The notes beneath the pieces were generated by a model. It was given only the letters and a program-made list of their open reading frames with translations, was not told the DNA's origin and did no database searches. This document shows, piece by piece, positions 11,808 through 55,222 of a stretch of DNA of 64,000 nt. The position numbers and the translations under genes were made by a program. Origin of the DNA: Paraspadella gotoi (Eukaryota > Animalia > Chaetognatha); assembly GCA_051294375.1 (NCBI GenBank), contig CM119268.1, positions 17,424,502 to 17,488,501 of the forward strand, read 5' to 3'. Numbering within the stretch: the first letter of the stretch is position 1; every line of letters begins with the position of its first letter.

Positions 11808-14800
11808 GTATTGAGTAATCCATATCATATTCTGCAAAAGAATTCTAGTAAGCTTTGCCATTTTTTAATAAGATACAAAATATTATGGGCGACTTGAGTC
11901 TTGGTACATTGTTACATATCATCTTTGATCACTCAACCTAAATTGTAAAATCTTAACTTATGTATCTTAAATCATTTTCTCAGCATCTTGTAAGAGGCTT
12001 TTCTATTAAGATACTTAAAACTTTTAAAAATCTATCTAAACAATGTTTCTTAAAAATTTAAAACAAAATTTTTTTCTTTCGGTTAAAACTAGATTTTCAA
12101 GAGAAAATAATTTTCTTAAATTAAGCTTAATTCACAATCAAATTTTTAACTTAAAACTGATTCTTTACAGCTATAGCTCAATTTTCTACACTTCCTATAT
12201 TAATTCTTCTTTGTACGTACATACTTGGAGTTGTAATCACTAATAAGTCTAAAATAAACTACTGTTACATATTTTCCAGATGGGTTTTTATGCTTTTATG
12301 AGTTTTATGAGTTAAAAAACTTATAGAATTTATTTCAATTCGAACTTTTTACTTTATGTAAATGTTTTATATCATAAATTTAGTGCCTTATTTTATAGGG
12401 AATCTCTGAATTAAAAAAAATCAAATTCTGAATTTAAAAAAATTAAAAAACAGTAAGGCCATTTTTTTAGATATCGGCGTTTAACAAACTCCATCATCAC
12501 TCCCGTGCTTGGTATGTGTGTGCTGAATTTGCAAAAGTAATGACTAACGAGAATATACTTTCTTGAACGAAGTCGTTAAAAATGGAAAGCAGTTGCAGCT
12601 CAAACCGTTAGACTCTTCGTTGCAGGAAAAAACTATCTTGGGCAAGAAAGGACAATGGGAGATTCTTATGGCGCATTTTGTGAGAAAGTGTTTTTCGTTT
12701 CAAAATATTCAACGAATAATCCAAAATTGCATGAAATAATCTAAATTTGCTTGAAGCGAAAGCAAATTTTGAAAATATCTTTCATAGAATATGGATTGCG
12801 ATGCACCTATAAAGTAATTCCTGCCAAATTTTCTTATGAGAAAAACCGCCTTACCGTATTGGGCTGCAACTCTTCAAATAAGGTTTCTTTTATATTTAAT
12901 ATAGTACAAAAAAAAAATCGAAAAAAAAACGATGGAGCCTTTTAAAAAATAGTAAAAGTGAATACATTTCATTCGGAAATCGTTCAGGAGCTCTTCCTTT
13001 CGAAATCCGCAGCTCGGTTTTAGCCTATGTTAATTGCAATGTAGTGATATCCCGACTAATCTATGTGCATATCATATCGGATACAACTGATTACTACATC
13101 TGCAACATGTCCTTAAATGTATGATCCTTCATTTTATTTACTAATTTTCTTTATATCTGTTAATAATGAATAATTATAATAATATCAATGAATTATCTTC
13201 TTTAATAATTTATATATGGTTCTGTAGTAGCCAAGTAGATTACAGACTTAATGCCATGCTACTATTGATAATCATATTCATACCAACTGGGAGAAAGTAT
13301 GTTTGGGCTTAAAATATAGTAATAACAATATTAAATATAGTTGATAACGAAAATTAAAACAATAAAAAGAAATATATTGTTTTATTTATCTTTAAAAATA
13401 AATATAAGCCAACTATTTTGATCAGAATTGCCTATATTTACTCTAAGAAAAATATTTCTTTACCTAGGCAATTTCAGAAAACACTTTGTCACGTTTAATC
13501 AGGTAAATATTACCTAAGTTCACCCCCTAGGTGTTTACAGCATCATCTGAAGCTCAGGGACTGCTTATTATTGTCTCTTCAATATTTTTTCCTTATAATA
13601 TGTTTAAATTTTATATTAATTTTTTAAACTTTTTATAACATATTGGATCCTCCCAGAACAAATCTCTCCTTTTTGACCAGACTCGCATCATTTAATGGCC
13701 GTCAAGGGAAAACAACAAGACGCAGAATTCCAGATTTTTGTCTGGATTTGTGCAAAACGAGGTGACTGGCGGATAGAGGGAGAGGGTTGGGAGGAAGAGA
13801 AAGAGAGAGACAGGGGAAGAAGGGGAAGAGAGGCAGGAGGCAAGAAGGGACAAAGAGAGGGAGATAGAGAAAAGATTAAAAAGCATAAGAAAATGAAAAG
13901 TTGATGGAGGTTAAAAAAAAAGTAAACCAAGTAAAGAGTTATAGGATAGAAGGAAGAAAAGGAGATAAGAAAATAGAAGCTATGAGAAAGAAGCGAAGAT
14001 AATAAGAGAACCTAAATGTTTGGGAGCAAAAGACAGAAAAGAAACGGAAGGAAAGAAGAGAAGGAAAAATGTCAGGAAAAAACTTTCGTAAAAAAAAAAG
14101 AGGAATTACAAAACATAGGATGAAAGAGAAGCATAGGGAAATAAATAGTGCAGCATAGTACAGATGACAGAAAAGACAAATAGCAAAAGCGTATCACTTT
14201 CATTCCGCATCCGAGTATCAGAATTCTCTCCGCTCGCATTTTAATGGTCATGGAATTACGGGGCGGAATTTCCAGTCAGATCCTCAAAATATTTTACCGA
14301 TTCTTGGTCATTTTTTTTCTTTCTGCTCGTTTTACATCATTCATTCTTCCTTTTTTCAATAAGTTCTTCACTTGTTTCAAACTACCTTTCTTTTATCCTT
14401 TTTTTTTTATCTTTTTCCACATTTTCTCTCTTTCCTTACCAGTTCCTTACTTGTACTTACCTATTTCGGTAATTATAAACGTTTTTTTTCTTTTCATCGT
14501 TTTTATTATTCTCATCTCGCATCGGAATTTTTCCCCCAATGGATAATTTTTATCAATATATATCATTTTCGATATATATCCTTCTTCCATTTGCTTAATC
14601 AATCGCTACTCCCTTCTCTCTTTCATCAATCCACTCTCTCCCCATCAGTCCTCACTCTTCCACCCCTCTTCCCCCCCTCTCCTCCCTCCCAACCCAATGT
14701 CATTTATCCTCATCCCCAACCGACTTATTTGTCATACGTCAGACCACAAGATGGCAGAGAGCGATAAAAAGACCGTCTACCAAAAGGATTCGCTCTCCAT

Positions 14801-14816
14801 ATCAGATTCCATGTCG

Positions 14817-14867
<51 letters not shown>

Positions 14868-15231
14868 ACCCTTTATTCCTTCCTTTTTACAATATTTCTT
14901 TTCCGTACTTTTGAAATGACATTTTTCAAAAATCTTTAAAGATATATATGTTTTTAATAAAAAATTTAATAAAAATTTTATACACGTATTTAAATTTAAA
15001 TTTTTAAATTTTGTTTGTTCTCGGACCCTCGTGACAAACGAAAGCTAAAATTGTTTTTAATTTTATTATTATTAGGTTTTTAGAATTCCGAATTTAAATT
15101 TAGGTTTAAATCTATTTAAAAATCTAATAATACATTTTTTTTTTCAATTCTATCTCTCTAACCGACGAAATCCCATCGTTATCCATCTTTTCCGCTTCCG
15201 GTTCCATTTTTATTGCTTTCGGTTCCATCCT

Positions 15232-15267
15232 CGATCCCGCAGGACTCGAACCCGGAATTTCTTGATC
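15232..15267 (-). pseudogene. 3' half of a tRNA-Arg-like sequence (fragment; duplicate at 22054-22090)
   Basis: Minus strand reads GATCAAGAAATTCCGGGTTCGAGTCCTGCGGGATCG, with a T-loop GTTCGAGTCC and an Arg-like 3' end. There is no 5' half; a (GACC)n tract lies upstream. Confidence 0.5.
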
Positions 15268-15700
15268 GACTCATTTAAGATCGGTCGGTCGGTCGGTCGG
15301 TCGGTCGTTGGTTCCTCCTTGGTCTGACTTTCGCTTCACATTTCGCCCTTTTCTTTCTTTTTTTTTTTTTCGTTTTATTTCGTTTTATTCGCGAATAAAA
15401 TAAGTTGAAAATTCCAGAGTCACCAGACGGTGGAGGGAGATTATATTTTTATTTTTATTCAAATCTTTTTTTTTTAATTTCAAAATATATATATATTGTT
15501 ATTCTAAGAATCACATTGATTCATTAATAATAAGTATGTTTGTTTTATTTTTTTTTATAAAAATACTAACAATTACATTTTTCTTAACTATACATTTTGC
15601 AACTTTAAATAAAGTTACATGAATAATGGTTGGTTCTTGGTCTTCTGGAATCCAGGGAGCGATCTTAGCGGAGTAAACCCGGTCGCCATAACATCACCAT

Positions 15701-15741
<41 letters not shown>

Positions 15742-15745
15742 TCCC

Positions 15746-15816
<71 letters not shown>

Positions 15817-15912
15817 ATAACATCACCATCTTCGAAGATGTGACGTCAGCCTGCACCGAGATTCATCATTTCTCCTTCCAAACATTCTCTCTTTCTTTCT
15901 CCTCTCTCTCTT

Positions 15913-16001
<89 letters not shown>

Positions 16002-16159
16002 TCCTCTCTCTTCTTTCCTTCCTCTTAATCTCTCTCTTTAATCCCGGGAATAAAATTCGTTGGCCGCAAATTCGACGTTTTTCAAACAACTTTTCAAACA
16101 ACTTCTGCCTCATTTGCATAAATTTTCGCTAAAATTTCCATTACTCCAATCACGCCGGA

Positions 16160-16524
16160 ATGTCGCCCAGCTTCGACTACGATGACGACGACGAAGATAA
16201 AATAAAAGACGACGACGATGAGGCAGACAATGACAATGATAAAGAACCAATGAGATTGACGGCGGAGGACTGTCAGTACGATACTTATCAGGACCATGAA
16301 CGATTGCTTCAACCAAAAAGGATGAAAGTACGACTAGGGACTTTTGAGAAACAACTGGAATGGAGCTAAATCAAGTCAAGGAAAAGTATACATACCGATC
16401 GTCAATCGTAAAAACCACTCCATGTATTTTGAAATAAGCCAAGTCAATCTTGACAACGACGACGATGACAAAAATGACCTCGACGAGACGGAGGCGACGA
16501 CGAGGCGACGAACCACGACGACGA

Positions 16525-16567
<43 letters not shown>

Positions 16568-16591
16568 CGACGACGGAGCGACGATGGCTGA
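16160..16591 (+). other. Possible short Asp-rich ORF or exon (frameshifted; copies at ~18214-18600 and ~22963-23365)
   Basis: A consensus of the three copies gives MSPSFDYDDDDEDKIK...RLLQPKRMKVRLGTLRTNWNGAKSSQGKVYIPIVNRKNHSMYFEISQVNLDNDDDD...GGDDG*. It is largely driven by (GAC)n and has no recognisable domain. Confidence 0.25.
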
Positions 16592-17096
16592 AGCGATGAT
16601 AATTCTTAATGAATGGGGCCTCCCAGTTCGCGAGACGACAAATCGTGTCGCCCCCTCTCCAAAGTTGTTAATAACAACAACAACAGCGAACAGAACAACA
16701 ACACAGTAAAGAAGGGAAACGGAGGAAAGTTGTAAATGTTAATAAAGAAAGAAAGGCAGCAGAGGACGACGACGACGACGACGACGACAAGAGAAAATTG
16801 AAAGGGGCGACAAACGTTCCACTCAAAAGAGAGCGAGAAACTTAATCACAAGAAATCCGGCGTTTCCAAATGAACTCGGAACGAACGTTTATTCTTCGCA
16901 GACGAGACACAAAGTGAATTCGTAAAAAAGTCTGCATACGAAAAACGTTACGATACTCGGTTCGGAGAAACGATGGTTTAGCTAGGGAGACGACGTCGTC
17001 CTTCTCGTCGTCCGAACAGTTTTTCTATCAGGGTGACGTCTAGAACGATTGCGCGCTCTCTATCTCTCTCGCGCTCTCTCTCTTCTCTCTCTCTCT

Positions 17097-17165
<69 letters not shown>

Positions 17166-17452
17166 GAAAATTTCGTTGCTTTCCTAAGAAAAATAATAAA
17201 TAAATAACTAAATATGTGAATAAATCAATAAATGACTTTTATTTTTTGTTTCTTAAACAGAAAAGGAAGGAATATTTTTTAAATAGTTAAACATTAATAA
17301 TTATCGATAAAAAAATCACAATAATTTCTACATCTACCTTCTATATCTTGAAATGGAATTGAATTTCTAGTCCAACCTTCTTTCATTTCCTTTTTTCCTT
17401 GTAATACTTAGTCTAATTAATACATCGAAAAGTTAACAAAAAGGAAGTTTTG

Positions 17453-17572
<120 letters not shown>

Positions 17573-18066
17573 CAGAGAGGGAAGAGAAAGAGAGAACAAT
17601 AGAAAAAGCGTGCTAAACTGCCAAGAAAGTTACGACATCAATTTGCAGCAAGTCATTCCAGTTAGTGAGACCAAGGGAATAATGATACCAATTGAATTTT
17701 CATCAGTCAACTTCTCCCCGTTATTACTTTTGTTTAGTTTAATAGCCAAGCATCCAGGGGACTTTTATGTCTCGTGGTAAAAATCTTTTTGAAAAGTTAC
17801 GTTGAATTATTGCAAAATCTAAATTTAATTGCTCACAAAGCGAAAAGATAAGTTTTATATACATTTTTTAAAATTTTGTTATCCACTCATTATAATCAAA
17901 AATATTTAACGTGAACTAAAGTAACGACTTCCCAATTGGGGACCTCTGCATTCACGCTGAATGGGGAATTCACCTCTTTTCCCGATTCGCAACGTCTGAG
18001 GTGTCATCAACGCGTCTCTCTCTCTATCTCTCTCTGTTTTTNNNNNNNNNNNNNNNNNNNNNNNNN

Positions 18067-19066
18067 TTTCCTTCCTCTTAATCTCTCTCTTTATCCCCGG
18101 GAATAAAATTCGTTTGGCCGCAAATTCGACGTTTTTCAAACAACTTTTCAAACAACTTCTGCCTCATTTGCATAAATTTTCGCTAAAATTTCCATTACTC
18201 CAATCACGCCGGAATGTCGCCCAGCTTCGACTACGATGACGACGACGAAGATAAAATAAAAAGACGACGACGATGAGGCAGACAATGACAATGATAAAAG
18301 AACCAATGAGATTGACGGCGGAGACTGTCAGTACGATACTTATCAGGACCATGAACGATTGCTTCAACCAAAAAGGATGAAAAGTACGACTAGGGACTTT
18401 GAGAACAAATGGAATGGAGCTAAATCAAGTCAAGTAAAAGTATACATACCGATCGTCAATCGTAAAACCACTCCATGTATTTTGAAATAAGCCAAGTCAA
18501 TCTTGACAACGACGACGATGACAAAAATGACCTCGACGACGACGACGACGACGACGGAGGCGACGACGACGACGACGACGACGGAGGCGACGATGGCTGA
18601 AGCGATGATAATTCTTAATGAATGGGGCCTCCCAGTTCCGCGAGACGACAAATCGTGTCGCCCCCCTCTCCAAGTTGTTAATAACAACAACAACAGCGAA
18701 CAGAACAACAACACAGTAAAGAAGGGAAACGGAGGAAAGTTGTAAATGTTAATAAGAAAGAAAGGCAGCAGAGGACGACGACGACGACGACGACGACAAG
18801 AGAAAATTGAAAGGGGCGACAAACGTTCCACTCAAAAGAGAGCGAGAAACTTAATCACAAGAAATCCGGCGTTTCCAAATGAACTCGGAGACGAACGTTT
18901 ATTCTTCGCAGACGAGACAACAAAGTGAATTCGTAAAAAAGTCTGCATACGAAAAACGTTACGATACTCGGTTCGGAGAAAACGATGGGTTTAGCTAGGG
19001 AGACGACGTCGTCCTTCTCGTCGTCCGAACAGTTTTTCTATCAGGGTGACGTCTAGAACGAGCGCG

Positions 19067-19153
<87 letters not shown>

Positions 19154-19473
19154 TCTCTCTCCTCTCTCTCTCTCTCTCTCTTCTCGAAAATTTCGTTGCT
19201 TTCCTAAGAAAAATAATAAATAAATAACTAAATATGTGAATAAATCAATAAATGTTATTTTATTTTTGTTTCTTAAACAGAAAGGAAGGAAGGAATATTT
19301 TTTAAATAGTTAAACATTAATAATTATCGATAAAAAATCACAATAACTTTCTACATCTACCTTCTATATCTTGAAATGGAATTGAATTCCTAGTCCAACC
19401 TTCTTTCATTTCCTTTTTTCCTTGTAATACTTAGTCTAATCAATACATCGAAAAGTTAACAAAAAGGAAGTTT

Positions 19474-19476
<3 letters not shown>
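18067..19476. repeat. Third copy (Z) of 16015-17452, starting at an N gap
   Basis: Near-identical to part of Y1/Y2; joins X2 at GGAAGTTTTGA|GAAC. Confidence 0.88.
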
Positions 19477-24760
<5,284 letters not shown>

Positions 24761-26363: not shown

Positions 26364-29300
26364 TCATTTCTCACAAATTCTCTTCCCGTTCAAAATTAGG
26401 ATCAAGTAGACGATCCCAACAAACAACGCCGTGGATCCGAAGCAGAGATACACTCGCCGCCCGCTCAGCGCTCCGTAGAGGACGCCTCCAACGAGGCAGC
26501 CAACGGCTCCTCCAGCGTTGATAAAGGAGGCACCGGCTATGCCCTGGAGTGTCGCGCCCAACCCGGCGGGGGCAATAGCGTTAGCGAATACGGCGGTCGT
26601 TGTCCAACTCAGGGCAAAAGTGACGCTAAAGAAATAACTCCCTAATTAATAACCAAAATTTGACTTCCTTGTAATTTTTATTCAAAAGTCCTTATCTTGC
26701 ACTTGATAACTGAAAAGCGATATTTTCCAAATTTTTATCACATCTGAAAATCAAAATGAAAATCAACAAAAACAAAAAAAAAAAACAAACCAAAAAACAT
26801 CTGATATCACCATATTGATTTATCATTTTTCTTTAGGAAGTCTCTTCGTGCTGGCGATAAATTTAAATTTTCACTTTTTACATTATAACACCAAAAAAAT
26901 CATTACTTTTCAAATCATAACGTCGCAGTCAATCAACTCAATTACCTATGAAGCGTCTCTACTAAGAGGATGAGCCAAGCGGATTTGACTAAGAAGTAAC
27001 CCAGAAATCTTAGGAAGTACCCGAAGAAGGAAACCACGAGGCAAACGTCAGGGCCAAATCTTGCGTTGAGGGTGCCGCTAAAAAAGATGGCGCCAGGAAG
27101 AAGGTCATGGGTAAGGGGCGCCAAATTGTTTATCACAACACTACCTGAATTGAAACATGATTGCTTCTGATAATGTGCCGACCGCATAGGATATGCCCAT
27201 TTGAGTTTGTGATGCCAGCAAGACAGTCTCTAGGAACAACCCGTGATAGCTGTTGTAAAAACCTACAAAGCAGCCGATGACGAAGATGCTGCTCAAGAAT
27301 GCCAAAACTCTATAATTAGACAGCAGCTGCGTCAGCTGCGGAAGGAGCCTCTGTGGAGTTATCAATGGTTGCACCTCGTTGCTTTGAGATCGGGAGGAGA
27401 TAAGGTCGGATGGGGCTTCCGTTTTCGGCGATGTCTGTGAGTCTAGAAAAGGTTTATAAAGAAAAGGTTTATAAATGAATAATAAAAAAAAAAATAAAAA
27501 ATAAGCAGCCTCGACTAAAATATTTTTGGCTGGAACTGAGGATCGGATGTGTACTCACTGTAGGGCTCCCAAAATTTTCTCATATTGAAAAAGTTGTTGA
27601 TTCTTGTAAAGTTTCTCATTCCATTTTTAGTGAAAAAACCGAATATCACCATAAAAAAAATTCTCAGATTTTGATTGATGGATTTTCATCACCACTTTAT
27701 ATAGCGCACCACTTCCGGTTGAAGCTGGCTTTTGTTTTTAAAAATAAAACGTTTTTACACTGATAAATATTTAGTTTTAAGCTGGATAATTGTTTATAGT
27801 TTTAGATTAGTTCCTCTTTTTATAAATTCTAAATTATATATTATCAAAAATATTTATTACGTGAATTAATTTTATCTTGAAATTAAAAAAACTAAATCAA
27901 TATTTTTGAAAGATTTGTCAAATATTATTCTTTCAAATTAAAATTTAATATAATGTAATAATATATTTTTCCAAATATTTATTAATTATTATACTATCAG
28001 AAAATCAGTAAATTATTCATATTCATAATTCAAATTACTTGTTTGAGCCGAATTCATTCCGATGAAGAGTGCAAAGAGAGCGGCGGAACCTTTGAAGGCT
28101 GAAGTGAGTTGAACTCGAATCCAGTAGGTGTCGGAAATGTCGCCGAGGTGGTTCAATCCTTTAAAAAAACTAGTTAAAAAAAATCTTAAAAGTATTTTGA
28201 TCTCGCCTGACGTTATTATCAAAGAAAATAACTGAAAAAAATCCGGGAAAAAAAATGAATGATTGATGCAATTACCTTTGGTTAAAACTAGGCGTGAAAA
28301 GAATGGTCAATTTTAAAAATTTTAATTATCGGTTAAAATGCTAAAATTTAACCAGTTAACCGTTAAAATCGGTTAATTTGCTAACTATCATTATAATGAT
28401 AAAACTAAGTAACAAAAAATATTTTTTTATTTTCAATAAAAATGAATTAAAAAGGAATTCAAAGAAAAAATTGTAATAACAAAAAACAAAACAAAACATA
28501 AATAAATCAAATAATGGAGGTGGTAAAGTGAGTTAAGCGGAATTAACTTATAATTAAAATTTATGCAAAATGTTAGCCTTCTTCAATGAGACAATGACAG
28601 AGAAAGGGAGAGAGAGAGAAAAAGAGAGAGAGAGAGAATGTTTGATTATATGTTAAGGTCAGTTAGATTGAGAAAGGAAAATTAAAAGAAAATTAAAGTT
28701 CAGTTAGTACAATAAAATACATTTAAGCAATATAAAAAAGTAAACAGTATCGTGATTAAAATTTGAAACTAGGAAAGTAGTAAATAACTACATTATTAAG
28801 TAATAAACATTGAAATAAATGAAAGTGAAAGTGAAAATATAAAGTTAATAGTTTATTTTTTTTAATATAGTAAATTTATAAGAAGAAGAAAAAGCTCTCT
28901 CTCTTTCTCTCTCCCATTATCATATATTAGGAAATTTCACAAACCTAATTTGCACTGAAGAAGGCTAACATCACCGAAATGTGTTTTTTTTAATTAAAAT
29001 AAATTCAGTTTGAAATTAAAAATTATTTTTCACTTTTAATACTTACATATATGATCTAAAATAGGGGAAAAAGTTTAAAAAAATAATTGACAGCTTTGCA
29101 AAAAAAAACCATAATACTTAAAACAAATAAAAATTTAAATTAGTAAATTATAAAATTAACCAGTTAATTTTACCAAATTAACCGATTGGTTAAAATTGTT
29201 TTTAATCGGTTAAAACCCCTATGTAATTGGTAATTGGTTATTGATGTAAAAGTAATTGATTATTAATGCAATAATAATTGATTGATGTAATAGTAATTGA

Positions 29301-32300
29301 TATAATAGTAATTGATGCGATAATTAGTGATTATTGGTACGATGATAACCAATTATTAATTATGATAACCAAATGATTGAAAGCGATGATAACCAATAAT
29401 TGATGTGATAACCAATTATTGATGTGATGAAAAACATTCATTGATGCAACCATAGTCATTCATTGATGCGATGATAGTCATTCATTGACGCGAAGAGTCA
29501 CTCAACATAAATTAAACAAACAAATGCGTGTATGAGTGAGAGAGAAAGAGAAAAAGAAAATTGTTTTGTAAATAAAACAAACAAATCCAAGTATAGATAT
29601 GAAACATAACAATTAAAAAGATCTTGATTATGAAAAGTGTAACGAATAATTGTCTTCGCGCTATGGTCGGCGTGTTCAAAGCTTAACGTTTGTTTACCTA
29701 CGTTGCTAGAAAGATAGCAAATGCGCTTTGTCGGACTTGTTGAGGAAGCGAAGAGCCGGCAGGGGAATTAATGAAGAATGAGTATTTTAATGAAATGAAC
29801 ATTAAAATGATAATTGATGATTTATTGAAATGACTTTACATTGTTAAGGTTTGAACTACTCTCCATCTACTTTCACAATACAATACTTGTACGTTCTAAC
29901 ACTGACATTGTGACTTGAAAGACAAACATTAAAATTAGGTTCTCGAAAAATAGCCTTTTTTACTTTATAAAAAGCCATATCTAATTTTTTAAATTTTTTA
30001 TGGTTACCCACTTTTACAATTTTTAATTATAAAAAAGCGTGACAACGACGATGGCGACGACAATGACTACGACATAAAAAAGCAGAAGCGAACCAACATC
30101 TCGCCCAAGACTGGTGCGATAAAAAAACATAAATTCTTATTAAAATTCCATATTGAATTAAAACAGCGAAATATGTCAATTATTTTGATATTAAAATTTT
30201 AAAATATTAAAATTTTATATTAAAATTCTCTTAATAATCGGATTCTAATCCAACATCTTTTGATGACAAATAACTAAAATCAGAACAACAAGCATTCAAC
30301 AAACAACGCCAACAACTCGGGCACTAACCGAACCCACTAACGACAGAGAAAATCATGTAGCCAATGGTTCCCCACATTCTCTGCTTCCCATAGTCGTTGG
30401 TCGCGTTGCCCAACTCGTCAAAAGTCAAGGAGTCTATCAGCGCCTCTACCGGAGATTCGGAGGCGAGAAGCAGCGCGATGAGCGTCAGGGCCGCCCAGAA
30501 GGTAACATCGAATGCTTCTGGAGTTGGAGGTGCTGGAGGTGGTGTCGATGGAATCAGCGGCATCGGATCAAAGGTGCCGTTTTCAATTGTTGGCCGAGGA
30601 TGCAATATAAACAAGCACTGCCAAGATGCAACATGCACCGCCATGGTTAATAGAAGGATCACCTAAATTTAAATTAAATTTGTTTATATATTTACACGGT
30701 TCCTTTTTACATCGATTTAATCGGCACTGAGTGCACAAGAATGAGATGTCCCGGGATACGTTTCTGGACCTTTGGGCTACTAAAAAAATGGCAATCAAAT
30801 TTTAACTAATGACAGTTTTTTTATAAATTAATTTTAAAATTAGCTATATAAAATTAATAAAGTAGAAAAAAAAAATTGAAATTTTTAATTAATGAAAAAA
30901 ATTACGCATCACCTATAATCTATAAACAATTTCTTTTTGTTTGCGTCCATAACCAATATTTAATCTTTAATAGTTTATTTATAATTAATTTTTGTTTATT
31001 AAAATATTATTTTAATTTTTTTTCAAATAATTTAAATTAAAAAAAATTATAACTATGCCAAGTGATTGAAAAAAAAAATATTATAAGGGACTTACATACC
31101 TAATATTGGCCTTCATATACATATAAAGTAAGCTTATTATAATTATGTTTTGACATAAAAGAGAAATAATTTCTAAAATTAAATATAAAAAAATTATAAC
31201 TTTGAATTTTTTTTTAGCATAATAAACGATTTTTAATTAATTGTTCATAATGCTTTTAATAGCTACTGGTCTGTTGTATCCTTCTCACTTCTCACTATTT
31301 ATTTACTTTTGATAAAAAAAAATACTGACATTAAAAATTCTGTATGAAACAGACAAACTTTTTTTTAATCACATGCTATTTAATTTTTTATAGTAATATA
31401 ATATTACCCTTAGACAAAATTTAAAAAGCTTTAAACAATCCCAACTAGGCATTTTTAAGGCCAAAAGTAAGGTTATCAATTGTATAAATATTTGATATTG
31501 GGACTGCTTTGTAGGTTTTAACTTAATTTTAGTATGACAAAAAATTAGTATATTTAACAGTTTTTTATTTGGAATGGGCATCAAAGTTTAATATATATTA
31601 TCATCAGTACATTTGTTAAGTATAATAGATTCCTCCATAGATTTTTTATTTTTTGAGAATGAGATTATGGATAATGCGTAATTTCTTTATTTTTTAAAAA
31701 TTTTCAACATTTTATTTTTTTTATTCTACTTTATTAATTTTATATAGCTAATTTTAAAATTAATTTATAAAAAACTGTCATTAGGAAAAATGTGATTACC
31801 CTTTATTGGTGTAGCTCAAAAATTTTAAGAAATCCTCTCTCCATTTACATAACTTAGGACGACGTATCATGTCGGCCAGATAGGATAGAAGTGGGCGTGA
31901 GATTAAGCCAACAAAGGGACCAAACCCAAGGATGACCGCAGTTTCGTTAAAGTCGAGCCCAAGATATTCGGAAAAATAATTGGCGATGAAGGGGAAGGAG
32001 AATGTTCCTCCGGTGTAATAACAAAAGAACACAAACTTGACCATAAGCAACTTGGTATTACACGCCTATAAATTGGAAAAACGTCTTGATAATTAATACA
32101 AACAACTAGGATTAAAACGACTTTTATGGCAATGCGAATAATTGATATAAGGAGACGGGTTTAAACGAAAATACATTTAATACAATGTAGAACATAAACA
32201 ATTAAAACGGTGAATGAGAAAGTATTAAAGAGATTTCGAGTTGTGTTGTACGTGTGAGCTTGTTGGCTTTTATAGCCCAAAAGTCGGCCAAGGTGTCCTC

Positions 32301-32971
32301 AGCGTAAGGTCAGTGGCTAATCAACCACCAGTTACCACTGTGGCCAGAAACATGACCTGAATGACCTAAAACGTCCTCCATACTTTCCTCTTATTCACAA
32401 TGTAGTCGGGCATTGCCTAGGTTCACCCCGCCTATAAGCATAACTCTTTCAGTTGTGACCCGGTGGCTCATTGAGTAAAGCCATCAGCTCATGACCACTA
32501 GGTACCGAGTTCAATCCCAACCCGGCACCTACCTGCGGGAAGAGTGAGGACGGCTGTAAGCCGCCTTGGATGCGTGGCAAACCCTCAAGCCTGGTTCCAA
32601 GCCCAGGACCCGTTCCTTGTCTCTAGAGGGGTTATAAAAGTTACGGATAGTCATCTTCTACCCACTTGCGCCTTATCCACACTGGTGAGCCCATCCTGTC
32701 GAACGTATTCCAACCTTCTGATTCCAGGCCCATGGACGTGCCGAGATTGCTCCCCTCCCTCCACTGGAAGCAGTGCAGGGTGGGTTACAATCTGGGGGCC
32801 ATGTAGTCGGGCATTGCCTAGGTTCACCCCGCCTATAAGCAACTTAGCGCCTTATCAACAACAAAAAATTTTAAAATATTTACAATTATTCAAGAATCAA
32901 CATTTTACCGTTGCTATAGTTTTCTTCTCTCCCTTATTTTTTTCTTCAGTCTCGTTGTTTTCCCAGTCCAT
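26364..32971 (-). CDS. MFS transporter, MFSD6-like (MFS_1_like), paralog A, 7 exons
   Basis: Exons 32971-32909, 32065-~31851 (donor phase ambiguous), 30662-30329, 28158-28039, 27442-27145, 27077-26946, 26625-26364, with GT-AG boundaries. Motifs: PFIANYFSEYLGL, LSYLADMIRRPK, DYGKQRMWGTIG (MFSD6-family signature), LSEAIMFQF, ETLHSVTFALSW, ATLQGI. Multiple hydrophobic helices. Confidence 0.88.
28952..28985 (+). ncRNA. Hammerhead-like motif (Penelope type), decayed; inverted partial copy at ~28570-28586
   Basis: GCA-CTGAAGA-AGGCTAACATCACC-GAAA-TGTG-TT after a CT-rich tract. The minus strand at 28586-28570 reads TTGAAGAAGGCTAACAT. Confidence 0.4.
29225..29500. repeat. Degenerate minisatellite (~15-20 bp, ATTGATGTAATAGTA-like); related array at ~37030-37180
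   Basis: Repeated ATTGATG(T/C)(A/G)AT(A/G) units read directly. Confidence 0.7.
32401..32860 (+). mobile_element. TRIM family 1 with tRNA-derived LTR (Helenus/TRIMp3-like); 3' LTR internally deleted; in intron 1 of MFS paralog A
   Basis: 5' LTR TG..CA 32401-32681; PBS TGGTGAGCCC at 32683; PPT TCTGGGGGCCA 32791-32801. The 3' LTR 32802-32860 keeps both ends only. Perfect 4-bp TSD ACAA (32397-32400, 32861-32864). A-box/B-box tRNA-like segment at 32457-32527. Confidence 0.88.
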
Positions 32972-33212: not shown

Positions 33213-34170
33213 TAGGGTGTTTAAAAATAACAAAATATAACAAATCGAATAAGGTACATAGCTATTTCAGTGTAATAAAGTCTGTAGAATTCAATGTTGA
33301 TAACCATATTTTTCGTATAGTTTCATCTTTTTTGTCGAAAATGGCGATTTTTGCAGCACATAAGGTACTATTCAAATGCAACAAACGTTGTAGAGTATAA
33401 GCAACTTAAATTATTAAAATTTTATAAAAGCTATATTTAGCTTATATAATACGAAAATAAAGACCCATATAAATATTTCAGTAAGTTTATTTAGAAATTT
33501 TATATTTTATTAACTGTTTGTTAGCTATATTTATAAATAAATAATAATAAAAAATAAGCTAAAATAAAAAAATAAAATTTTAAAATTTTAAAACCGGATT
33601 TGAATTCCCAACAAAAAGTTGATATAAGAAAGTATAATCCATTTTAATAAATTCTTTCATTAAGTTGGTTAAAAATGTTAAAAACTAGTTTTTTATATAA
33701 TATATATATTTAATTTTTATCTTAAAATTATAGTTTTTAAATTTTGATCAACTTAATAATATAATTTTGGAATAAAAATTATATTTTCTTATATCAACTT
33801 TTTGCAAGGAATACAAATCCATGAATAAAGTTTTAAAATTAGTATTCTTTAACATTAACCTAATTTTTACTCATAATTATTAATAAATATAGTTAACTAA
33901 CTTTTTATAAAATATAAGATTTAAAAATAAACTTACCATAATATTTTTAAAAGTCATTATTCTTATATTTTAAAAGCTTATTAAAATTTTATAAAATTTT
34001 AATAATTTTTTTATAACAATATTATATACATTAAAAATCGTCATTTTCGATAACAAAGATAAAATAATACCAAAAATGGTTATCACCATCAAATTCTACA
34101 GACTTGTTTGCACTAAAATAGCTATGTACCTTATTCGATTTGTTATATTTTATTATTTTTAAACGCCCTA
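33213..34170. mobile_element. Foldback-like hAT MITE (almost the whole element is an imperfect inverted repeat)
   Basis: Termini TAGGGTGTTTAAAAATAA / TTATTTTTAAACGCCCTA, long inverted arms, and a perfect 8-bp TSD CTGTTGAC at 33205-33212 and 34171-34178. Confidence 0.88.
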
Positions 34171-35323: not shown

Positions 35324-36010
35324 TGTGGATAAGGCGCTAAGTGGGCTGAAGATGACTATCCGTAACTTCTATAACCCCCTTTAGTAGCTATGGAACGGGT
35401 CCTGGGCTTGGAACCAGGCTTGAGGGGTTGCCACGCCCCCAAGGCGGCTTGCGGCCGTCCTCACACTTTCCTCAGAGTAGGTACCGGGTTGGGATTGAAC
35501 CCGGTACCTAGTGGTCATGAGCTGATGGCTTCACTCAATGAGCCACCGGGTCACGACTGAAGGTGTAATGCTTAGAGGCGGGGTGAACTTTGCAATGCCC
35601 ACTACATGCCCCCCAGATTGTAACCCACCCTGCACTGCTTCCAGTGGAGGGAGGGGAGCAATCTTCAGCACTCCATGGGCCTGGAATCAGAAGGTTGGAA
35701 TACGCTCGACAGGATGGGCTCACCAGTGTGGATATGGCGCTAAGTGGGCTGAAGATGACTATCCGTAACTTCTATAACCCCCTTTAGTAGCTATGGAACG
35801 GGTCCTGGGCTTGGAACCAGGCTTGAGGGGTTGCCACGCCCCCAAGGCGGCTTACGGCCGTCCTCACACTTCCCGCAGAGTAGGTACCGGGTTGGGATTG
35901 AACCCGGTACCTAGTGGTCATGAGCTGATGGCTTTACTCAATGAGCCACCGGGTCACGACTGAAGGTGTCATGCTTAGAGGCGGGGTGAACTTTGCAATG
36001 CCCGACTACA
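35324..36010 (-). mobile_element. Complete TRIM family 1 element with tRNA-derived LTRs (Helenus/TRIMp3-like)
   Basis: Two ~283-bp LTRs (36010-35727 and 35606-35324, TG..CA, few differences) flank a 120-bp internal region with PBS TGGTGAGCCC (from 35725) and PPT TCTGGGGGGCA. Flanked by TATA/TATA. Each LTR has A-box TGGCTCATTGAG and B-box GGTTCAATCC. Confidence 0.92.
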
Positions 36011-38996: not shown

Positions 38997-41900
38997 TTAC
39001 TCTTTCCCAAGTCCGTTGATTTCATCCTTCTTTTCATGGATCAGACGCTTGTTGCACAACATTATGACCCCATAAGCTAAACATGAGATTAATCCAGTGC
39101 ACGCAAAAACGAGATATGTTTCCCGTCCTCCAATAACTCCATACAGATTGCCCCCAATAATGCAGCCCACTCCCACGCCCGCGTTCTGGTAGAGACCCCC
39201 AGCTAGACCCTGAAGAGTGGCGCTTAAACCCTTAGGAGCGATGGCATTCGCGATGGAGGTCGACGTGGACCAGCTCAGGGCAAAGGTCACGCTGGTTCGG
39301 GAAAGAGATGATGCTGATTGAATGTTTGTGTAAAAGCTTATCACTTTTTGTATCAGTTTGTAAACTTATATGAATAGGTGAAGCTAGACAGTATTAGGTT
39401 TAACTTGGATTTTATAAGATGAGACTGAAAGAGTAACCAAAATAAATCACATTGCTTAGACTAACCTGTGAAATAACTCTATGGGTAGGACGACCCAGGC
39501 GGATTTCACGAAGAAATAACCGAGAAATCTGAGGAAGAAGCCGAAGAAAGACAGAAGGAGGGAGAAGTCGGAGCCGATGAGAGCAGTGAGTGCTCCGCTG
39601 TGATTTGTGAGTAAGTAAGACCAATTATAGAAATATTAACGAATAGGTAAAAAATATGTAGTAAGAATGAAACATATGGAAAAATAGTAACAAATAGTAA
39701 TAGTAATAGAAACAAGTAGTAAAATCAGGTAAAAAAAACGACATTTGACCTGAACTGAAACATGACAAATTCTGAGAAAGTCGCCACAGCGAAGGCGACG
39801 CCTATTTGGGCTTGAGTCGCTCTCAACTCCGCCTCCATGAAGACTCCTTGGTAGTTTCCATTAAAGCCGATGAGACATCCGATGGTGAGGAAACTAAACA
39901 GAAACAATAACACGCGACGGTTGAACAGGAGAAGCAACAGCTGTTTGTGTGAAGTCAGTGACGATTCAGGGTCGCCGTTTGTTTGAGTTGTATCGTTCTC
40001 TGGCGATCTTGGGAGAAATGGTGGTGAAGTTTCGGGGTCTTTAGAAGTCGGACCTTCAGGGAAAAAAACAGAAGTTAACAATGAAATAGATCGAACGGGG
40101 ACTTTAAAAAAATTAAAATATTTTTGCAGATTTTCAAAAAATAATATTTTAAAATCTCAACAACTAAAATTTTGTTTACTTTTCGTGAACAATTTTTTTC
40201 CGAGAAAGAGAGTGCAAATTGAGGCTAAAACTTTGAAAGCAGTGTTGAAGTGAATGCGGATCCAGTAGGAGTCTGAAATGTCGCCCAAATGATTTAATCC
40301 TAAAGGAAATTTGTTTTAAAATCATCTAAATATCATTTTACTTGTTGTAAAAGTTATCCTATAACTTCCAGATTAAAATTAAAAACGAACCAAGTAATTT
40401 TTACATAAATTTATAATCATGACGACCTTAAAATTATTTCAATTTGCCCACGAATTGTTCGCAGACCCGACCCACCGAATCCGCTAACAATGGAGAAGAT
40501 CATGCAGCCAAACGTTCCCCACATCCTCTGCCTTCCGTAGTCCTCTTTTGTGGCGTCTCCCATGGCGTCGAACGTCAACGCATCCATCAATGCGTTCGTG
40601 GCAGATCCGAACGCCATCAACGACGCAACCAGGACTAACGCCAACCAAAAGGTGGCGTCGGAGCCGAGTGTGCGATGTGGAGGCGTGGATGTCGAGTCGG
40701 TGACGTGTACATGTTTTGGACGTGGATTTAAAAGGAGCAGGCATTCCCACGAAGCGAGATGTATCGCCGCGGAGACGAGAAGAAACATCTTTTATGAAAG
40801 TAAGTAAATAAAGAAAAAGTTTTGTTTATATATATGTTGATTATTGCAGCATTTCTGTCTGCTTTCTGTCCGAGTTTGACGTAAAAAGTAGCTCTGAACA
40901 AATTTCTAAATTTTCACTTTCCCCTTACTTTGTGACTGTGACTGAGATCGGCGAAATACGTGATTGCCAGTCGAGCGATGACAGCAACGAAAGGAGCCAA
41001 ACCAAAGATGAATGCTGATTCGTCAAATGTGATATTAAGTGCAGTTGACAAATAATTGGCGATATATGGGTTTGAAAAGACGCTTCCCGCAAACCAACAA
41101 AAGTACATAAGTTTGAGGAGAAGTAGAACAGTGTTGCAGTTTCTCTGTAACGATAAAAAGCTACCATGTAACAAAATTACAATTGATTAGGTCTTATTTT
41201 TTTATTTATTATCAGAAGTGATTAGTGATTTGTCACTAAGAAGTTCTTGTAAGTTGTAACAGAAATCAAAGTTATCTGTGGTAGAAAAACTTTGACATGG
41301 TGAGAATTCGAATCATCTTTTGAACAAGTTTGAGCAAACAACGCCGGATCTGCCCACGATCATTAGAGGTAATTAATTAATCAATTAATTAATTCAAGTT
41401 AAATAATTAAGTAGTCAATTAATCAATTAATTTGATCCCATATGTTTGTTTTCAGGTCTTTTCATCACTGACCACAACAAAAGCAATGACGACGATGATG
41501 GAGACTATGACAATAATGCCGATAACAATTAATTAACTTGATTGATTGAATAATTAATTAATTGATAAATAACTTGATTGATTGAATAATTAATTAATAG
41601 ATAAATAAATTTATTGATTGAATAATTGATTATTTATTGACTGAACAATTAAATAATTATTGATTAATTAATTTACTAACTGATTAATTAACTGATTAAT
41701 TATTTGATTAATTAACACATCCTGCATTTACATTTAATATAAAAAGAAGAACAAGCATAATCAATTAGTGAAACAGTTTTTTTTGTTTTTTCCATTTAAA
41801 CTCATTTCCACTCGGAAACTCGGACATTTTATCTATTGTTTTTAACATTTCAGAAACGAATACGATTTTTCTATCATATGGAATAAAATTTTTTTCTTAA

Positions 41901-49991: not shown

Positions 49992-52900
49992 TGAACGATG
50001 CCGATAAAACTAATTTTCCTTCGTCGCTCTTGTATCATTGCTTGTTATTATCATAGTCTCTATCTTTAGTTTTCCTTCGCGATGCGAGATGCCATTTGTT
50101 TTTGAGATATTGCTTCAGCCCATCGCGAGGTTTGGGTCTGGGCATGTATTTCTGTCCAGACATGCATTCTTGTCCGCGAATGTCCTCCTTTATTTTGTAA
50201 TGTTTTTGCGCATGATCTTTCTGCTCGGGCATGGCCTTTTTCATGATAATAAAACGATGTTTTTGACGAGAGAATAGACTATTCGAGTTTGAAGAAGATA
50301 CTACGCGTTTCCTCTCAGATAGAAATTATTCAGCTCTTTCGAGATAGGCGCGTCTACATTTGGTGAGCCAGATCTAGGGAACATTTTCGTGGCCCTTCTT
50401 ATGCCCCAATAGCCTTTTTAAGGCTGTTTCAAAAAAGATTGTCACAAGATGGTATTTTGCAGACTTTTTTGAAAGCCTATGTCAATAAAATTCTTAAGAT
50501 CGTGCGTAACGGATTTTCCTCGCCTTCTCTTCTTCCCTAGCCGACCTATCCATGTATTTCTCCATGTGGTTGAGGCTTCTATTTCGTTCCGACCCGCGGC
50601 CCGGTGTGTCGGTCCGGCTGCGCCGGACTTCTGTGAATCATTGATGCTCCGGGCGCTTTGTTCGTCCGGCTGACGCCAGTTCCGCCACTAAAAGCTGCAC
50701 CCGTCCTCTCGGACAAATAACTTCCACGGATCGCGTATCGCAGCCATTATGGGTTGAAGACGTCTCAAGAAAATTCAGTATAGATTTTTTCATTGACGAA
50801 CCTGAGAAGTTGAAGATCCTTACGGCGTCTCAACGCGGCGCCTACTCGCCGCTTCGTCCTGGACTGGCCCGACGCGCGCCGCCAAATCCTCTCTACAAGG
50901 ACCAGTCTCGGCGGGTAACCCCGGTGACTGTCTTACGGGACTGCGCGCTCTGGCGGAAGGCCTCTCGGTTCATTGAGTATCTTCAAAGAGCCATCACTCT
51001 TAACGTCCTCCTTTTTTGGATAATTTTTAAGTTATTTTTAAATGTGATTCTGCCGCTCAGGCCAGCCGTCAGTGGACACTTGCAAGTCCTCCTAGTAGGA
51101 GTACATATGGAGTCGGCCAAGCGTCATACGAGAAATACTTGAATAACGACGCGCAAACACCTTTCGTTTTCCACTCTTGCCCAACGCAATGAGGTTGCAG
51201 GCATGAATTTCAAGCAACTCCTAGTTCTATGGAGTGCGCCATAGGGTGATCAAAAGTTGGAATGCTCTACGCCTCTGCTGGCGGAGTCAATAGCTCTCGC
51301 CATTCCATAAATTTCTTGTCTGGATTCCAATTCAGTTATAGATTTGGAGACAAAGCCGTTAACATGCGCACTCTCATGCACTTTTACCCTGCCGCTCTAA
51401 CGTCAAGACGCCAGGAAATGGCAAGAAAATAATCGAGGGAATATGGCAAGCGACGGTCGGCCAAGTGGAGCATTGGCGGCGCGTTCTCAATGCTCTCCAA
51501 GTTCGGGATCTCGAATCGGTCTCGAGTTCCTTGTGGACTTCTGGAAGCCAAGAGGTCAGTCTCTCACTTCCTGCGCTATCACTGTGGGAAATCAAGGACG
51601 CAACCTGAAGGCAAGTTCAAACGGCAGCTAGCGCTCGAGCCAAATGGCTCTTCAGATACATGGAACTATGTGCACAAGGAGATGACTCTCGCGTTTCATC
51701 AAGATTCTGGTCGATTTTAAGGTTTTCTGTTCAATCATCCACACACTGTGACACGCCAATTCCTTGGCGCTGATTTCCTGCCGTCGCGACCACCTCTGTC
51801 GTAGACCATTGCTGGCCGCAAGCTGTTGGACGACCTGACTCTCTGATTTGGGTAATCCCTTAGATCCCCCCCGTTCGACAATTGATGGAAGTACGTGGCA
51901 TCAAGCTGGCGCGTCATACAACATCTTCGATGCTTTTCCAACTCACTGAAGAATCGTATACTCGGACCTTTGACAATCCAAACTTTGTAACTACAAAACA
52001 ACCAGGCGATGGAGAGTTTATTTATTCATCCACATTCTATCTGAAGTGCATCCTGTGTGTCTTTGCAAGGTCTCGATCCGCACTGATCGCCACAGGAAGC
52101 TGGCACGGCAGCTCTAAAGGGTGAGTTTCGCAGGACGTTTCAACGCCATTGACATGTGTCTGCCGATCCAGTCTTTTGCACCAGTCATGGGGCGTCTTCT
52201 GGCCTAAAGCAAGCCATGAATAATCAGCGAAACCCTTGACATGGTGGGCTTCGAGCAGCAAATTGCGAGAAACTTTATTTGGACCGCCATTTCTGTCCCC
52301 TAACAAAGGATAAGATCGCTTAATCCCAGTAATTAAGCATTACTCCAAACGTAACTTCTCCGCCCGCCTCGCGGGATGTCGGTTATACAGTACAAGAATC
52401 GTACCTCAGTCAAGAGGCTACATACAAGTGCTGTACATGCTATGCATTAATGAGAGGCATGTCAATACGACGGGCCTATCATACTCCGTTTGGGTCATTT
52501 TGAAATACTGGCGATTTCCTTTGTTCTACAAAACGCTGCCTCAGGCTTTCCAAAGGGCTAATGGAACTCGAAGTTTGCCGTGTCCTTTCCAGGGTGTTTG
52601 TCTACCTATGACATCCTTGTCGCCTCCAAGGATCAGCACTAGCACACTGGAAGATCTTGCAAGACTCTTTGACGCCTGGCAGAACATGGACTTCATCTAC
52701 GAAACGAGAGAAGTGCGTTCTTGGCCCGCTTCTTTGACTTTCTTGGCCACAAGGTTACGTTCGCTGGCGCACTGTCTCGGCGCCGTCGCTCGACAAGCGT
52801 GGCGGTCATCCGTGCCTTCCCCAAGCCATTGACGATCAACGAACTATACCCGTTTCCTGGGCAGTGTCAATTACTCTTCGGCGTTTCTTGCCGCATGCTG

Positions 52901-55222
52901 CATTGACCATGGCGCCACTTTTTGGTGCCCTCAAGGGAAAACCTCAGCCAAAAATCTGTTGAATGGACGCTCAAGAACGCATCAAAGGCATTTGAAAGAA
53001 ACCAAAGAAGCCCTCGCATCTGCTTCTATGCTTGTCCATCCCGTTTCTGGCGCCGTTGACGGCGCTGACCGTTGAACGCTTCTGATGTCGCGATCAGGAG
53101 AGTTTTGGAACAACTTGTCCATGGATCCTGGCGGCCACTTGCCTTTTTCTCGAAGCCTCTACGGACAATGAGAGAAGTACTCTCATTTGACGGAGTTGCT
53201 GGCAGCTCACCTTCCATCCGCCACTTCCGATACTTCCTGGAGGGCGCCTTCACGCTCTTTACGGACCACGTCAGTCTTGTTCCTTCTCTGCACAAGAAGA
53301 CGATTCCCAAAAGCAGGCAGGCCACCAGCCTGGCTGCTATCTCTGAATTCACCACGATGTTCGCATGTCTCTGGGAAAAAAGAACATTGTGCGATCCCTC
53401 TCCAGGGTGGTCATCCTGACGCCGTTAGTGCTGTCAGCGGCGACGGCAATCACTTGCCCCTCTGCTCAGACCAAGAAGAGGATCAAGACATCCGCCGTTT
53501 GCGGGCATCATCGACGACTTCTCTTCGCGACTTCAGATGGCCATTCTGATGGCACCCAAAGTCATTCGTGGACATCTCCACCGCGCGTTGACGGCCACTG
53601 GTTCCGAAACTGGCGCCGCAATCGTCTTTGATGCGATCCACAGTCTTCTCATCCGGGCGTCAAAGCAACCAAAGCACTTGTTTTGAAACATTTTGTTGGC
53701 TCGGTGCGGCCAAGGACGCCGCCAGCTGGCACGTTCCTGCATCATCCTGCCAACGGGCAAAGGTGCGGACTCATGCCTCGGCACCTCTGGATTTTCAACG
53801 CCGCACAAAGGAGATTTCAACATGTCCATGTCGACCTCGTGGCACTTCCAGCCTCAAGAGGTTACACCCACCTCTACCGTTGTCGACGCTTCAGTCGTGT
53901 GGCCAGAGGCAGTCCCGACTCAGACATCTCAGCAGCAACGGTCGCGCGCTTTCGCTTCTGGTTGGGTTGCCCGCTTTTGGCGCCCCCTAGGGATTACTTG
54001 ATTCGTGGAAAGTCAATTCATTCTCAGATCTCTGGCTCAATTGGCTCAACCTTGCGCCAATCTTCATCATACCACCGTTTACCATCCTCAAGCCAATGGA
54101 ATGGTGAACGGTTCCATCGATGACTCAAGGCGTCCTCTACTCGCAAAATTGGTCGGCGCTCACTGGGTTCGACCAACTCCCGGCATCCTCCTAGTCTTCG
54201 CTCATGTTCGTCAAGACTCTGAGGCTCCATCGCGGAACTAGTCTACGGCGAAGAGTTCGATCGGGCGGAGTTAACCGGAACCTGGCGCCGCCGTACTCAG
54301 AGAGAACGACCTCCTTCGCGCTCTTCGGCGCGAGAAGCGCGCTTCGAGCTCTATCTGAAGGCACGCGCCATTCGACACATCGCGATGCCATTCCTGAAGG
54401 TCTTCACGAGGCGCGGTTTGTCCGTGTGCGCCAGGACCCTCACCGGGGACCGCTGCCAACCAGTCTCAAAACGTCCTTCCGTGTTTCAGCGTATATATGC
54501 AAAGTATTTCCGTCTGGACTTTTGGGCGACCCACGAGGTTTCCATTGACAGCGCTAGCCCTTCGTCGAGGAACAACTCCGAGACGGTGCCGGCTCAGCCG
54601 CCGCCCGAGGCCGCCCGCGCGTGCCTGCAGTTCCAGCTTCGCCTCCTCCAGTGCTCGGCGATTCATTGAGTTCTGCAGCTCCAATCCTATTGCAGACACG
54701 GACACCAACCAGAACGAACGAAACACACTCTCGGACCTCTTCGATATAGGGCGAGAACTCTATCTCTACCGTGACGTCGTTCTGGATGGGGGGCCTATGA
54801 AGAGATGCGATTAGCGAGTAGACTGAATTTTCCTTAGGTCGCGGCTCCTGTAGCAATTGACTTTGTTATGTATCATAAGTCCTCTATCGTGTAGTTTCAC
54901 TCTCGCGATGCGTAGATGCCAACTTGGTTTTTGGTAGATAAATTGTCAGCCCATCGGCGACGGTTTGGTTATGGGCAATGATGTAATTTACTCTGTCCAG
55001 ACATTGCTTTTCTGTCAGCGGCATGTCTTTCCCCTTTATTTGCTGTAATGTTTTTGCGGCATGCCTTCGTGCTCGGCATGCCTTTTTCATGATATATAAA
55101 ATAGACGAGATGTTTTTTGGCAGAGAATAGACATCATGTTTGAGAAGTTACTAGCGCGTGTTTTTCTCTCAGATAGCAAAATGTATTCAGCTCTTCGAGG
55201 ATAAGGCCGCCTCAGATCTCCA
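49992..55222 (+). mobile_element. Ty3/Gypsy LTR retrotransposon, CsRn1-like, full-length structure
   Basis: LTRs 49992-50358 and 54798-~55222 (TG..CA, colinear but indel-rich); PBS TGGTGAGCCAG at 50361; PPT GGATGGGGGGCCTA before 54798; pol domain order PR-RT-RH-IN. Confidence 0.93.
51690..54560 (+). pseudogene. Frameshifted pol polyprotein (protease, RT, RNase H, integrase)
   Basis: Fragments across frames: LGADFL (~51765), PFG (~52486), FQR, VYL(D)DILVAS (~52600), GHKV, ASDVAI..VLEQ, WRPLAFFSK, IRHFRYFLEG..TDH, HSLSHPGVKAT, CQRAKV, RRFQHVHVDLV, YHPQANGMV/ERFHR. Confidence 0.9.

Follow-up and report, generated by a model that had tools for sequence, protein, structure and literature searches.

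The window, which is the whole 64-kb stretch of DNA analyzed here, carries two copies of a TRIM flanked by exons of tandem MFS_1_like (PF12832) transporter genes (27141-27554 and 38997-40791, minus strand). Two A+T-rich segments at 33213-34170 and 30817-31774 terminate in long inverted repeats (99 nt, 90%, and 86 nt, 87%) and are MITE- or foldback-like, and ~13600-24300 is occupied by segmental repeats whose periods are near 2.0 and 6.8 kb and which are rich in (CT)n tracts. A structured repeat of ~115 nt is present twice (6306-6416 and 6743-6854), its copies being 80% identical and offset by 437 nt. It may be a second TRIM-like element; it has no meaningful Rfam match and folds on the minus strand at z -2.6, and the twister model described below gives its copies 14.4 and 8 bits.

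Architecture, copies and promoter-like segment of the TRIM

The full copy, E1 (35324..36010, minus strand), is 687 bp long and is inserted in a (TA)n tract. It comprises a 5' LTR of 284 nt (35727..36010) that runs TG...CA and is 97.5% identical to the 3' LTR, an internal region of 120 nt (35607..35726), and a 3' LTR of 283 nt (35324..35606), all on the minus strand. The PBS (35714..35725) starts one base past the 5' LTR, and the PPT (35609..35614), short and made of six G only, lies two bases ahead of the 3' LTR. No stop-to-stop frame of at least 120 aa overlaps the element. With a length below 1 kb, two LTRs bounded by TG...CA, no coding capacity, and a PBS and PPT flanking the internal region, E1 has the defining features of a TRIM, and the initial annotation of a non-coding LTR(284)-PBS-120 bp-PPT-LTR(283) element is confirmed on the minus strand. 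The TSD of E1, TATA, fits 4 bp, its length being ambiguous because E1 sits in a (TA)n tract.

A second insertion with a 4-bp TSD had been claimed at 32401-32860, and it is indeed there. This copy, E2 (plus strand), retains a full 5' LTR, the internal region, and a 3' LTR reduced by a large internal deletion to 40 + 19 nt (59 nt); it is 91.7% identical to E1 over 446 columns and is bracketed by ACAA on either side (32397-32400 and 32861-32864). Letters common to both LTRs within one copy differ from those of the other copy, as LTR-type replication predicts.

Further copies of the family were sampled through contigs of public sequencing runs from three studies of the same organism. In run X1, 5,170 contigs matched the TRIM copies, with summed depths of 0.5-1.6 million across most of the LTR; the internal part reached 0.18-0.38 million and unique flank ~180. 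The family is very abundant in the three studies, on the order of thousands, a deliberately coarse statement because summed contig depth is no copy number. Exactly before the LTR start, 85 contigs of run X1 and 71 of run X5 switch to unrelated flanks, and other contigs reproduce the LTR-internal-LTR order that the initial annotation had expected of additional copies. A 4-bp TSD can be read in E2 only, that of E1 being ambiguous and those of other copies not being visible in contigs. From a biofilm run (X10) came 12 short contigs, which were left out of the interpretation, and run X9, presumed to be RNA, did not enter as evidence of expression. We considered and rejected a SINE or tandem repeat, given the TG...CA LTRs, the PBS, and the sharp 5' boundary with unrelated flanks; the contigs running LTR-internal-LTR counter it further.

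The LTRs also carry a tRNA-derived segment, which in the 5' LTR of E1 spans 35883..35955 (minus strand), with an A box at 35948-35937 and a B box at 35904-35894, and which in the 3' LTR lies at 35552-35480. The A box, 5-bp D-stem-like repeat, anticodon-like loop, and B box that had been described in the LTR are all in place. T8 and G53 are 45 nt apart, the canonical tRNA spacing, and 5/7 acceptor pairs survive. The A/B pattern arose in 114 of 200,000 dinucleotide shuffles of the LTR. The box motifs of Helenus/TRIMp3 elements are present (TRGCY in box A and GGTTC in box B); YGG, which occurs in box A of most Helenus families, is absent from that of the TRIM. The initial annotation had required conservation of the boxes; they vary little across copies, with variation at 3% or more in 1 of their 23 positions versus 11 of the 50 others in the segment (p=0.053). 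The segment was expected to be a pseudo-tRNA, and this is what we find: ARAGORN calls no tRNA within the 64-kb window, Rfam gives no tRNA match up to E 10, and the predicted fold consists of two hairpins with no cloverleaf, on which grounds we reject a functional tRNA. The T arm (35883-35913, minus strand) has been remodeled and now forms a perfect hairpin, 11-13 pairs long, that carries the B box at the tip.

No TTT occurs on the E1 sense strand, an absence expected in 2% of shuffles of the 404-nt unit; taken by itself, the lack of TTTT does not reach significance (60% of shuffles). The nearest T runs (four or more) sit 23 and 9 nt past the two copies. Structure, the 4-bp TSD, the PBS for a tRNA 3' end, and the low variation of the A and B boxes support the reading of this LTR segment as a tRNA-derived, Pol III-type promoter like that of Helenus/TRIMp3. 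We infer that Pol III uses it, with a predicted start at 35955 by tRNA numbering.

The PBS matches, at 11 of 12 positions, the tRNA-Trp-type PBS published for the CsRn1 clade of Gypsy elements, which combines a tRNA-Trp PBS with 4-bp TSDs (PMC2582038); the TRIM agrees with the clade in both. A literature search on the PBS string returned unrelated papers only. Within the window, a broken Gypsy-type LTR retrotransposon with diverged LTRs and many frame breaks lies at 49996..55213 (plus strand, approximate ends). The first 9 nt of its PBS, at 50361, are identical to the TRIM PBS. It encodes an RT-type RNase H domain (E 2e-5), downstream of which integrase-like motifs can be read by eye. Its PPT is a G-run similar to that of the TRIM, and its many small indels may partly reflect assembly errors. 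This element plausibly marks a candidate helper lineage for the TRIM, as distinct from a shown partner. Judged by these features, the host is a eukaryote and probably an invertebrate.

A twister-like motif in the LTRs

Past the tRNA part, ~155 nt of LTR hold a type-P5 twister-like motif, found just downstream of the tRNA part in each full LTR (both of E1 and the 5' LTR of E2). The Helenus/TRIMp3-like reading of the initial annotation, which stands as regards structure, 4-bp TSD, PBS, and boxes, is incomplete in this respect: it missed the twister-like motif, and the T run is lacking.

In the 5' LTR of E1 the motif occupies 35798..35876 on the minus strand. P5 pairs 35876-72 with 35802-798, and P2 is formed by a 3' strand at 35869-66 (bulge at 35868) and a 5' strand at 35851-49. 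The 3' strand of L1 (35865-61) is followed by the P1 segment (35860-55), and T2 (35848-47), P3 (35846-22), and P4/L4 (35821-04) complete the order. Cleavage is predicted between 35854 and 35853, that is, at LTR position 157/158. The motif of the 3' LTR (35395..35473, minus strand) has a C at position -1 and a P5 weakened by two changes; its predicted cleavage site, between 35451 and 35450, is 403 nt from the first. The motif of E2 (32535..32613, plus strand) would be cleaved between 32557 and 32558.

The positions crucial for catalysis are intact, namely the general base G, the general acid A, and the next A in L1. Both pseudoknots are fully Watson-Crick (3/3 and 2/2 pairs), P4 has 5 bp, and pseudoknot T1 contains a U-A pair where most of the aligned natural P5 twisters have C-G. 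P2 has 3 pairs and a bulge, its 5' strand counting three bases, not four; a P2 of 3 pairs also occurs in the ten natural candidates described below, there bulge-free, and the TRIM P2 is not formed in predicted folds. The stretch that Rfam leaves unaligned is the P3 hairpin, and all elements stand in P5 order when set against the S. mansoni twister table of PMC8501958. Rfam gives no hammerhead match up to E 10.

Rfam Twister-P5 (RF02684) matches all three full LTRs at one place with 15.5-16.1 bits, which falls below the gathering score of 37.6; this Rfam model handles P3 as inserted sequence. When a general twister descriptor (two pseudoknots, P2, and P4) was applied, it had one match in the LTR and matched 1 of 20,000 shuffles; a strict descriptor matched 1 of 200,000, and its only three matches in the window are the three LTRs.

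For a closer comparison we drew on ten P5 twister candidates from metagenome and viral contigs with a 3-nt P2 strand and P3 abutting P4. They came from pattern scans returning 29 and 14 loci. Candidates with a 3-nt P2 strand lie at L012, L023, L027, L030, L032, L033, L039, L041, L042, and L043, and at nine of these ten loci the P3 hairpin abuts P4. The set is not blind, because the search patterns were designed from the TRIM itself; its pairing is still independent, with 97.7% of cells paired and double changes in 14 of 22 pairs among the eight candidates that were aligned. Our model was built from these 8 rows, and two L043 rows, left out because of a MAFFT misalignment, were kept as held-out positives. 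On both strands of the 64 kb it returns seven matches, of which the three LTRs rank 1-3 with 19.1-20.3 bits (E 0.012-0.022, rough), and it aligns P1 with a zero-length loop in two of the three. The held-out true twisters reach 52-55 bits, and what are probably chance matches get at most 17, which places the LTRs (19-20) just above the latter. Judged by these scores, the LTR motif is twister-derived but deviant, since the LTRs rank first yet score 19.1-20.3 versus 52-55 bits for true twisters.

The scans also bear on the subtype as a whole. A dedicated model of P5 twisters whose P2 strand is 3 nt long may recover twisters to which RF02684 gives low scores, and L022, L023, and L043 each hold several twisters a few hundred bases apart. 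Short-P1 pattern scans of viral and prokaryote collections yielded no convincing loop-less P5 twister among 22 matches. No TRIM copy or relative appeared in the metagenome, viral, and prokaryote pattern scans (29, 14, 14, and 8 loci), as judged by matched motifs, and a first viral scan using an element-like P4 gave 0 matches.

These scores raise the question of whether the twister resemblance arose by chance in a G+C-rich, hairpin-rich LTR. The Rfam scores far under the gathering score, the rough model E of ~0.01-0.02, and the non-independence of the three LTR copies all point that way. We nevertheless hold chance to be highly improbable, given the descriptor results (1/20,000 and 1/200,000 shuffles), the correct order of all elements with both pseudoknots paired, and a layout that matches the ten natural P5 candidates.

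Variation across copies was assessed over 35793-35957, with low-depth edges dropped and a position called variable when it reached 3% in at least one of three runs. Of the 28 positions that vary in this region, one, a CpG, falls in the twister core, so that 1/28 core positions vary versus 27/137 others (p=0.026); at non-CpG sites the figures are 0/27 and 19/119 (p=0.015). The test is post hoc and based on contig depth in a young family. No variant at 3% or above occurs at the catalytic G, the catalytic A, or the A that comes next, and U/C variation at position -1 stays below 3% across the family. In run X1, all six positions of the twister span varying at 5% or more fit the fold: three lie in the P3 loop, one is in the P2 bulge, one turns a G-U into an A-U pair in P2, and one turns a C-G into a U-G pair in P5.

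Predicted folding and a proposed replication route

The P1 region, which separates the L1 3' strand from the cleavage site, is a 6-nt palindrome, and because its six bases are palindromic a monomer P1 would be one pair closed by a tetraloop. The regular P1 stem-loop of a type-P5 twister is lacking. In predicted folds, a rival hairpin beats the monomer twister fold by 9.4 kcal/mol and buries the cleavage site, with a cleavage-site pairing probability of 0.98-0.99 in two LTRs and probabilities of 0 for P1 and P2; among the natural comparators P1 is formed in 10/10, with a probability of 0.85-1.0. A modeled strand-swapped dimer, which has a shared 6-bp P1 and two complete cores, improves on two monomer twisters by 18.9 kcal/mol and is level with the rival fold before pseudoknots are counted. 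Its gain of -8 to -11 kcal/mol lies inside the ordinary twister range of -3.6 to -13.7, and we reject dimer energy as proof of dimer function because ordinary twisters gain comparably from dimer folding. Nor is the palindrome independent evidence, since loop deletion from any stem leaves a palindrome. For the transcript as a whole, the free minimum lies 23.5 kcal/mol below the double-twister fold, with pseudoknots excluded from the energies. The two LTRs may have to pair for cleavage, a suggestion based on the one-bp P1 with a palindromic loop, as in dimer-dependent amphibian hammerheads.

The same folds bring into play a reading in which the twister is a real but inactive relic. A Helenus-like TRIM would have captured a ribozyme-bearing piece and would replicate ordinarily, with Pol III read-through ending in flanking T runs and the repeat formed by LTR 56-284 supporting normal strand transfer. 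The dominance of the rival hairpin over the monomer fold, the lost P1 loop and bulged P2, a model score far under that of true twisters, and the T runs of at least 4 at 23 and 9 nt beyond the copies all suit a relic, and Helenus elements spread without ribozymes (PMC10886601). Against it, the catalysis-relevant core is the least variable part across copies and the frequent variants keep pairs, and P1/P2 defects are tolerated in tested twisters: a study of 1,948 natural twisters, all of type P1 whereas the TRIM motif is of type P5, reports tolerance of P1/P2 imperfections and none of pseudoknot or catalytic changes (PMC11662667). P1 is moreover described as dispensable in twisters (PMC8501958, PMC11662667). 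On balance we consider a relic unlikely, if still a serious contender.

Our preferred reading, whose truth we regard as evenly poised, is that the TRIM works as a Pol III-driven LTR retrozyme. The evidence in hand is the order LTR-PBS-internal-PPT-LTR, a TSD of 4 bp, the A and B boxes, the core of the twister, and the freedom from T runs, and self-cutting into a unit-length, possibly circular RNA appears likely because a promoter-like segment is followed by a twister motif in each LTR. Pol III would start at the tRNA +1 of the 5' LTR and read the whole element into the A+T-rich flank, since the element offers it no terminator. The 403-nt unit would be freed by a cut in each LTR, and a host RNA ligase would circularize it. 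A CsRn1-type Gypsy reverse transcriptase, priming with tRNA-Trp at the PBS, would round the circle more than once, which would rebuild two LTRs and the upstream promoter removed by cleavage, and a Gypsy integrase would then insert the TRIM DNA with a 4-bp TSD. Double cleavage of a Pol-driven transcript, a circle, and a Gypsy RT step have been modeled for plant retrozymes (PMC4918200, PMC7761336). The predicted circle folds better than shuffles (z -2.9, 60 shuffles), and this fold stability lends weak support to a circle route.

A more specific version of the retrozyme reading, which we deem rather doubtful, makes the TRIM a non-plant LTR retrozyme that has captured a tRNA promoter and depends on an obligate double twister, in which P1 is a strand-swapped palindrome, solo LTRs stay uncut, and the 403-nt circle serves as template. 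Self-cutting would follow only upon transcription of the full element, and solo LTRs would escape, because a loop-less P1 forms only when two LTRs or transcripts swap strands.

The lack of a terminator also admits a narrower role, in which the twister is active but slow and is only a 3'-end former that replaces the Pol III terminator. No circle would be needed, because an RNA cut in the 3' LTR only keeps a ~100-nt repeat (LTR 56-157) for linear reverse transcription by strand transfer. The missing terminator, as opposed to the T run behind the tRNA part in most Helenus LTRs examined, agrees with this role, and a poorly pre-organized ribozyme would cut only part of the transcripts. Both LTRs have the same sequence, however, so nothing obvious favors the 3' copy, and plant LTR retrozymes of the same layout accumulate circles (PMC4918200 and PMC7761336). 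We rate this role as improbable.

The retrozyme reading, if true, would join Pol III TRIMs and LTR retrozymes, which have so far been treated separately, and would assign twister ribozymes a definite function within an LTR element. A natural dimer-dependent twister, if true, would be a new ribozyme architecture. The 403-nt unit, with its sharp predictions of site, junction, and dimer dependence, offers a cheap test of circular-RNA replication of LTR elements, and such elements could be widely missed because the motif falls under the Rfam cut-off.

Comparison with known systems

The papers found connect twisters with non-LTR retrotransposons and viroid-like circles only, and LTR retrozymes with plants and hammerheads only; an exogenous twister circle is known (PMC12542633), and LTR retrozymes are reported mainly from plants (bioRxiv 10.64898/2026.07.22.740005). 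The literature searched held no twister in LTRs and no dimeric twister, the original twister sequence lists, Repbase, Dfam, and most subscription journals being outside its scope. We found no mention of twisters in PMC10886601, and its sequence file gives 0 matches to three TRIM twister-loop motifs and 0 to the PBS 10-mer, with line breaks that may hide some. Motif searches and part of the supplement of PMC10886601 revealed no published Helenus family with homology to the TRIM.

Among animal retroelements with ribozymes, the Schistosoma SINE-like repeats share the succession of a Pol III promoter and a ribozyme, with the promoter ending up 3' after cleavage, but they are non-LTR tandem repeats with a hammerhead. 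Cleavage deprives them of the promoter, and they depend on tandem copies (PMC6765202); paired LTRs would remedy this, with the upstream promoter restored in every new insertion. The twister variants of S. mansoni Perere-3/RTE (PMC8501958) likewise place a twister in a retrotransposon, with a weak P1 and a P3 abutting P4, whereas theirs is of type P1 and occupies the 5' end of an autonomous non-LTR element and that of the TRIM is of type P5 in both LTRs of a non-autonomous one. Axolotl retrozyme hammerheads also have one bp and a palindromic tetraloop beside the cleavage site, and they cleave far better as dimers (PMC7229834); they belong to another ribozyme class, and dimer dependence is shown there and only predicted for the TRIM.

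Like Helenus/TRIMp3 elements (PMC10886601), ours is a TRIM of less than 1 kb with tRNA-like A and B boxes in a non-functional tRNA segment of its LTR, and like the animal families it has a 4-bp TSD, a PBS for a tRNA 3' end, and a Gypsy helper (candidate here). Most Helenus consensuses examined there end in the tRNA part and a T run, whereas the tRNA part of our TRIM is situated within the initial half of the LTR, with the twister-like motif behind it instead; its A box also differs from that of most Helenus families in having no YGG. Plant LTR retrozymes (PMC4918200, PMC7761336) are likewise non-coding, with a self-cleaving motif (predicted here) in each LTR, a PBS, a PPT, a 4-bp TSD, a Gypsy helper (a candidate in our case), and a unit set by two cleavage sites. 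They have a type III hammerhead and a tRNA-Met PBS where the TRIM has a twister and a tRNA-Trp PBS, and the TRIM further departs from them in its internal Pol III-type boxes, its unit of 403 nt versus 600-1000 nt, and its host, which is probably not a plant. The TRIM, in sum, has most of the features of Helenus/TRIMp3 but differs in LTR layout, and there is about as much reason to believe as to doubt that it works like an LTR retrozyme, yet one lacking the hammerhead and tRNA-Met features of that class.
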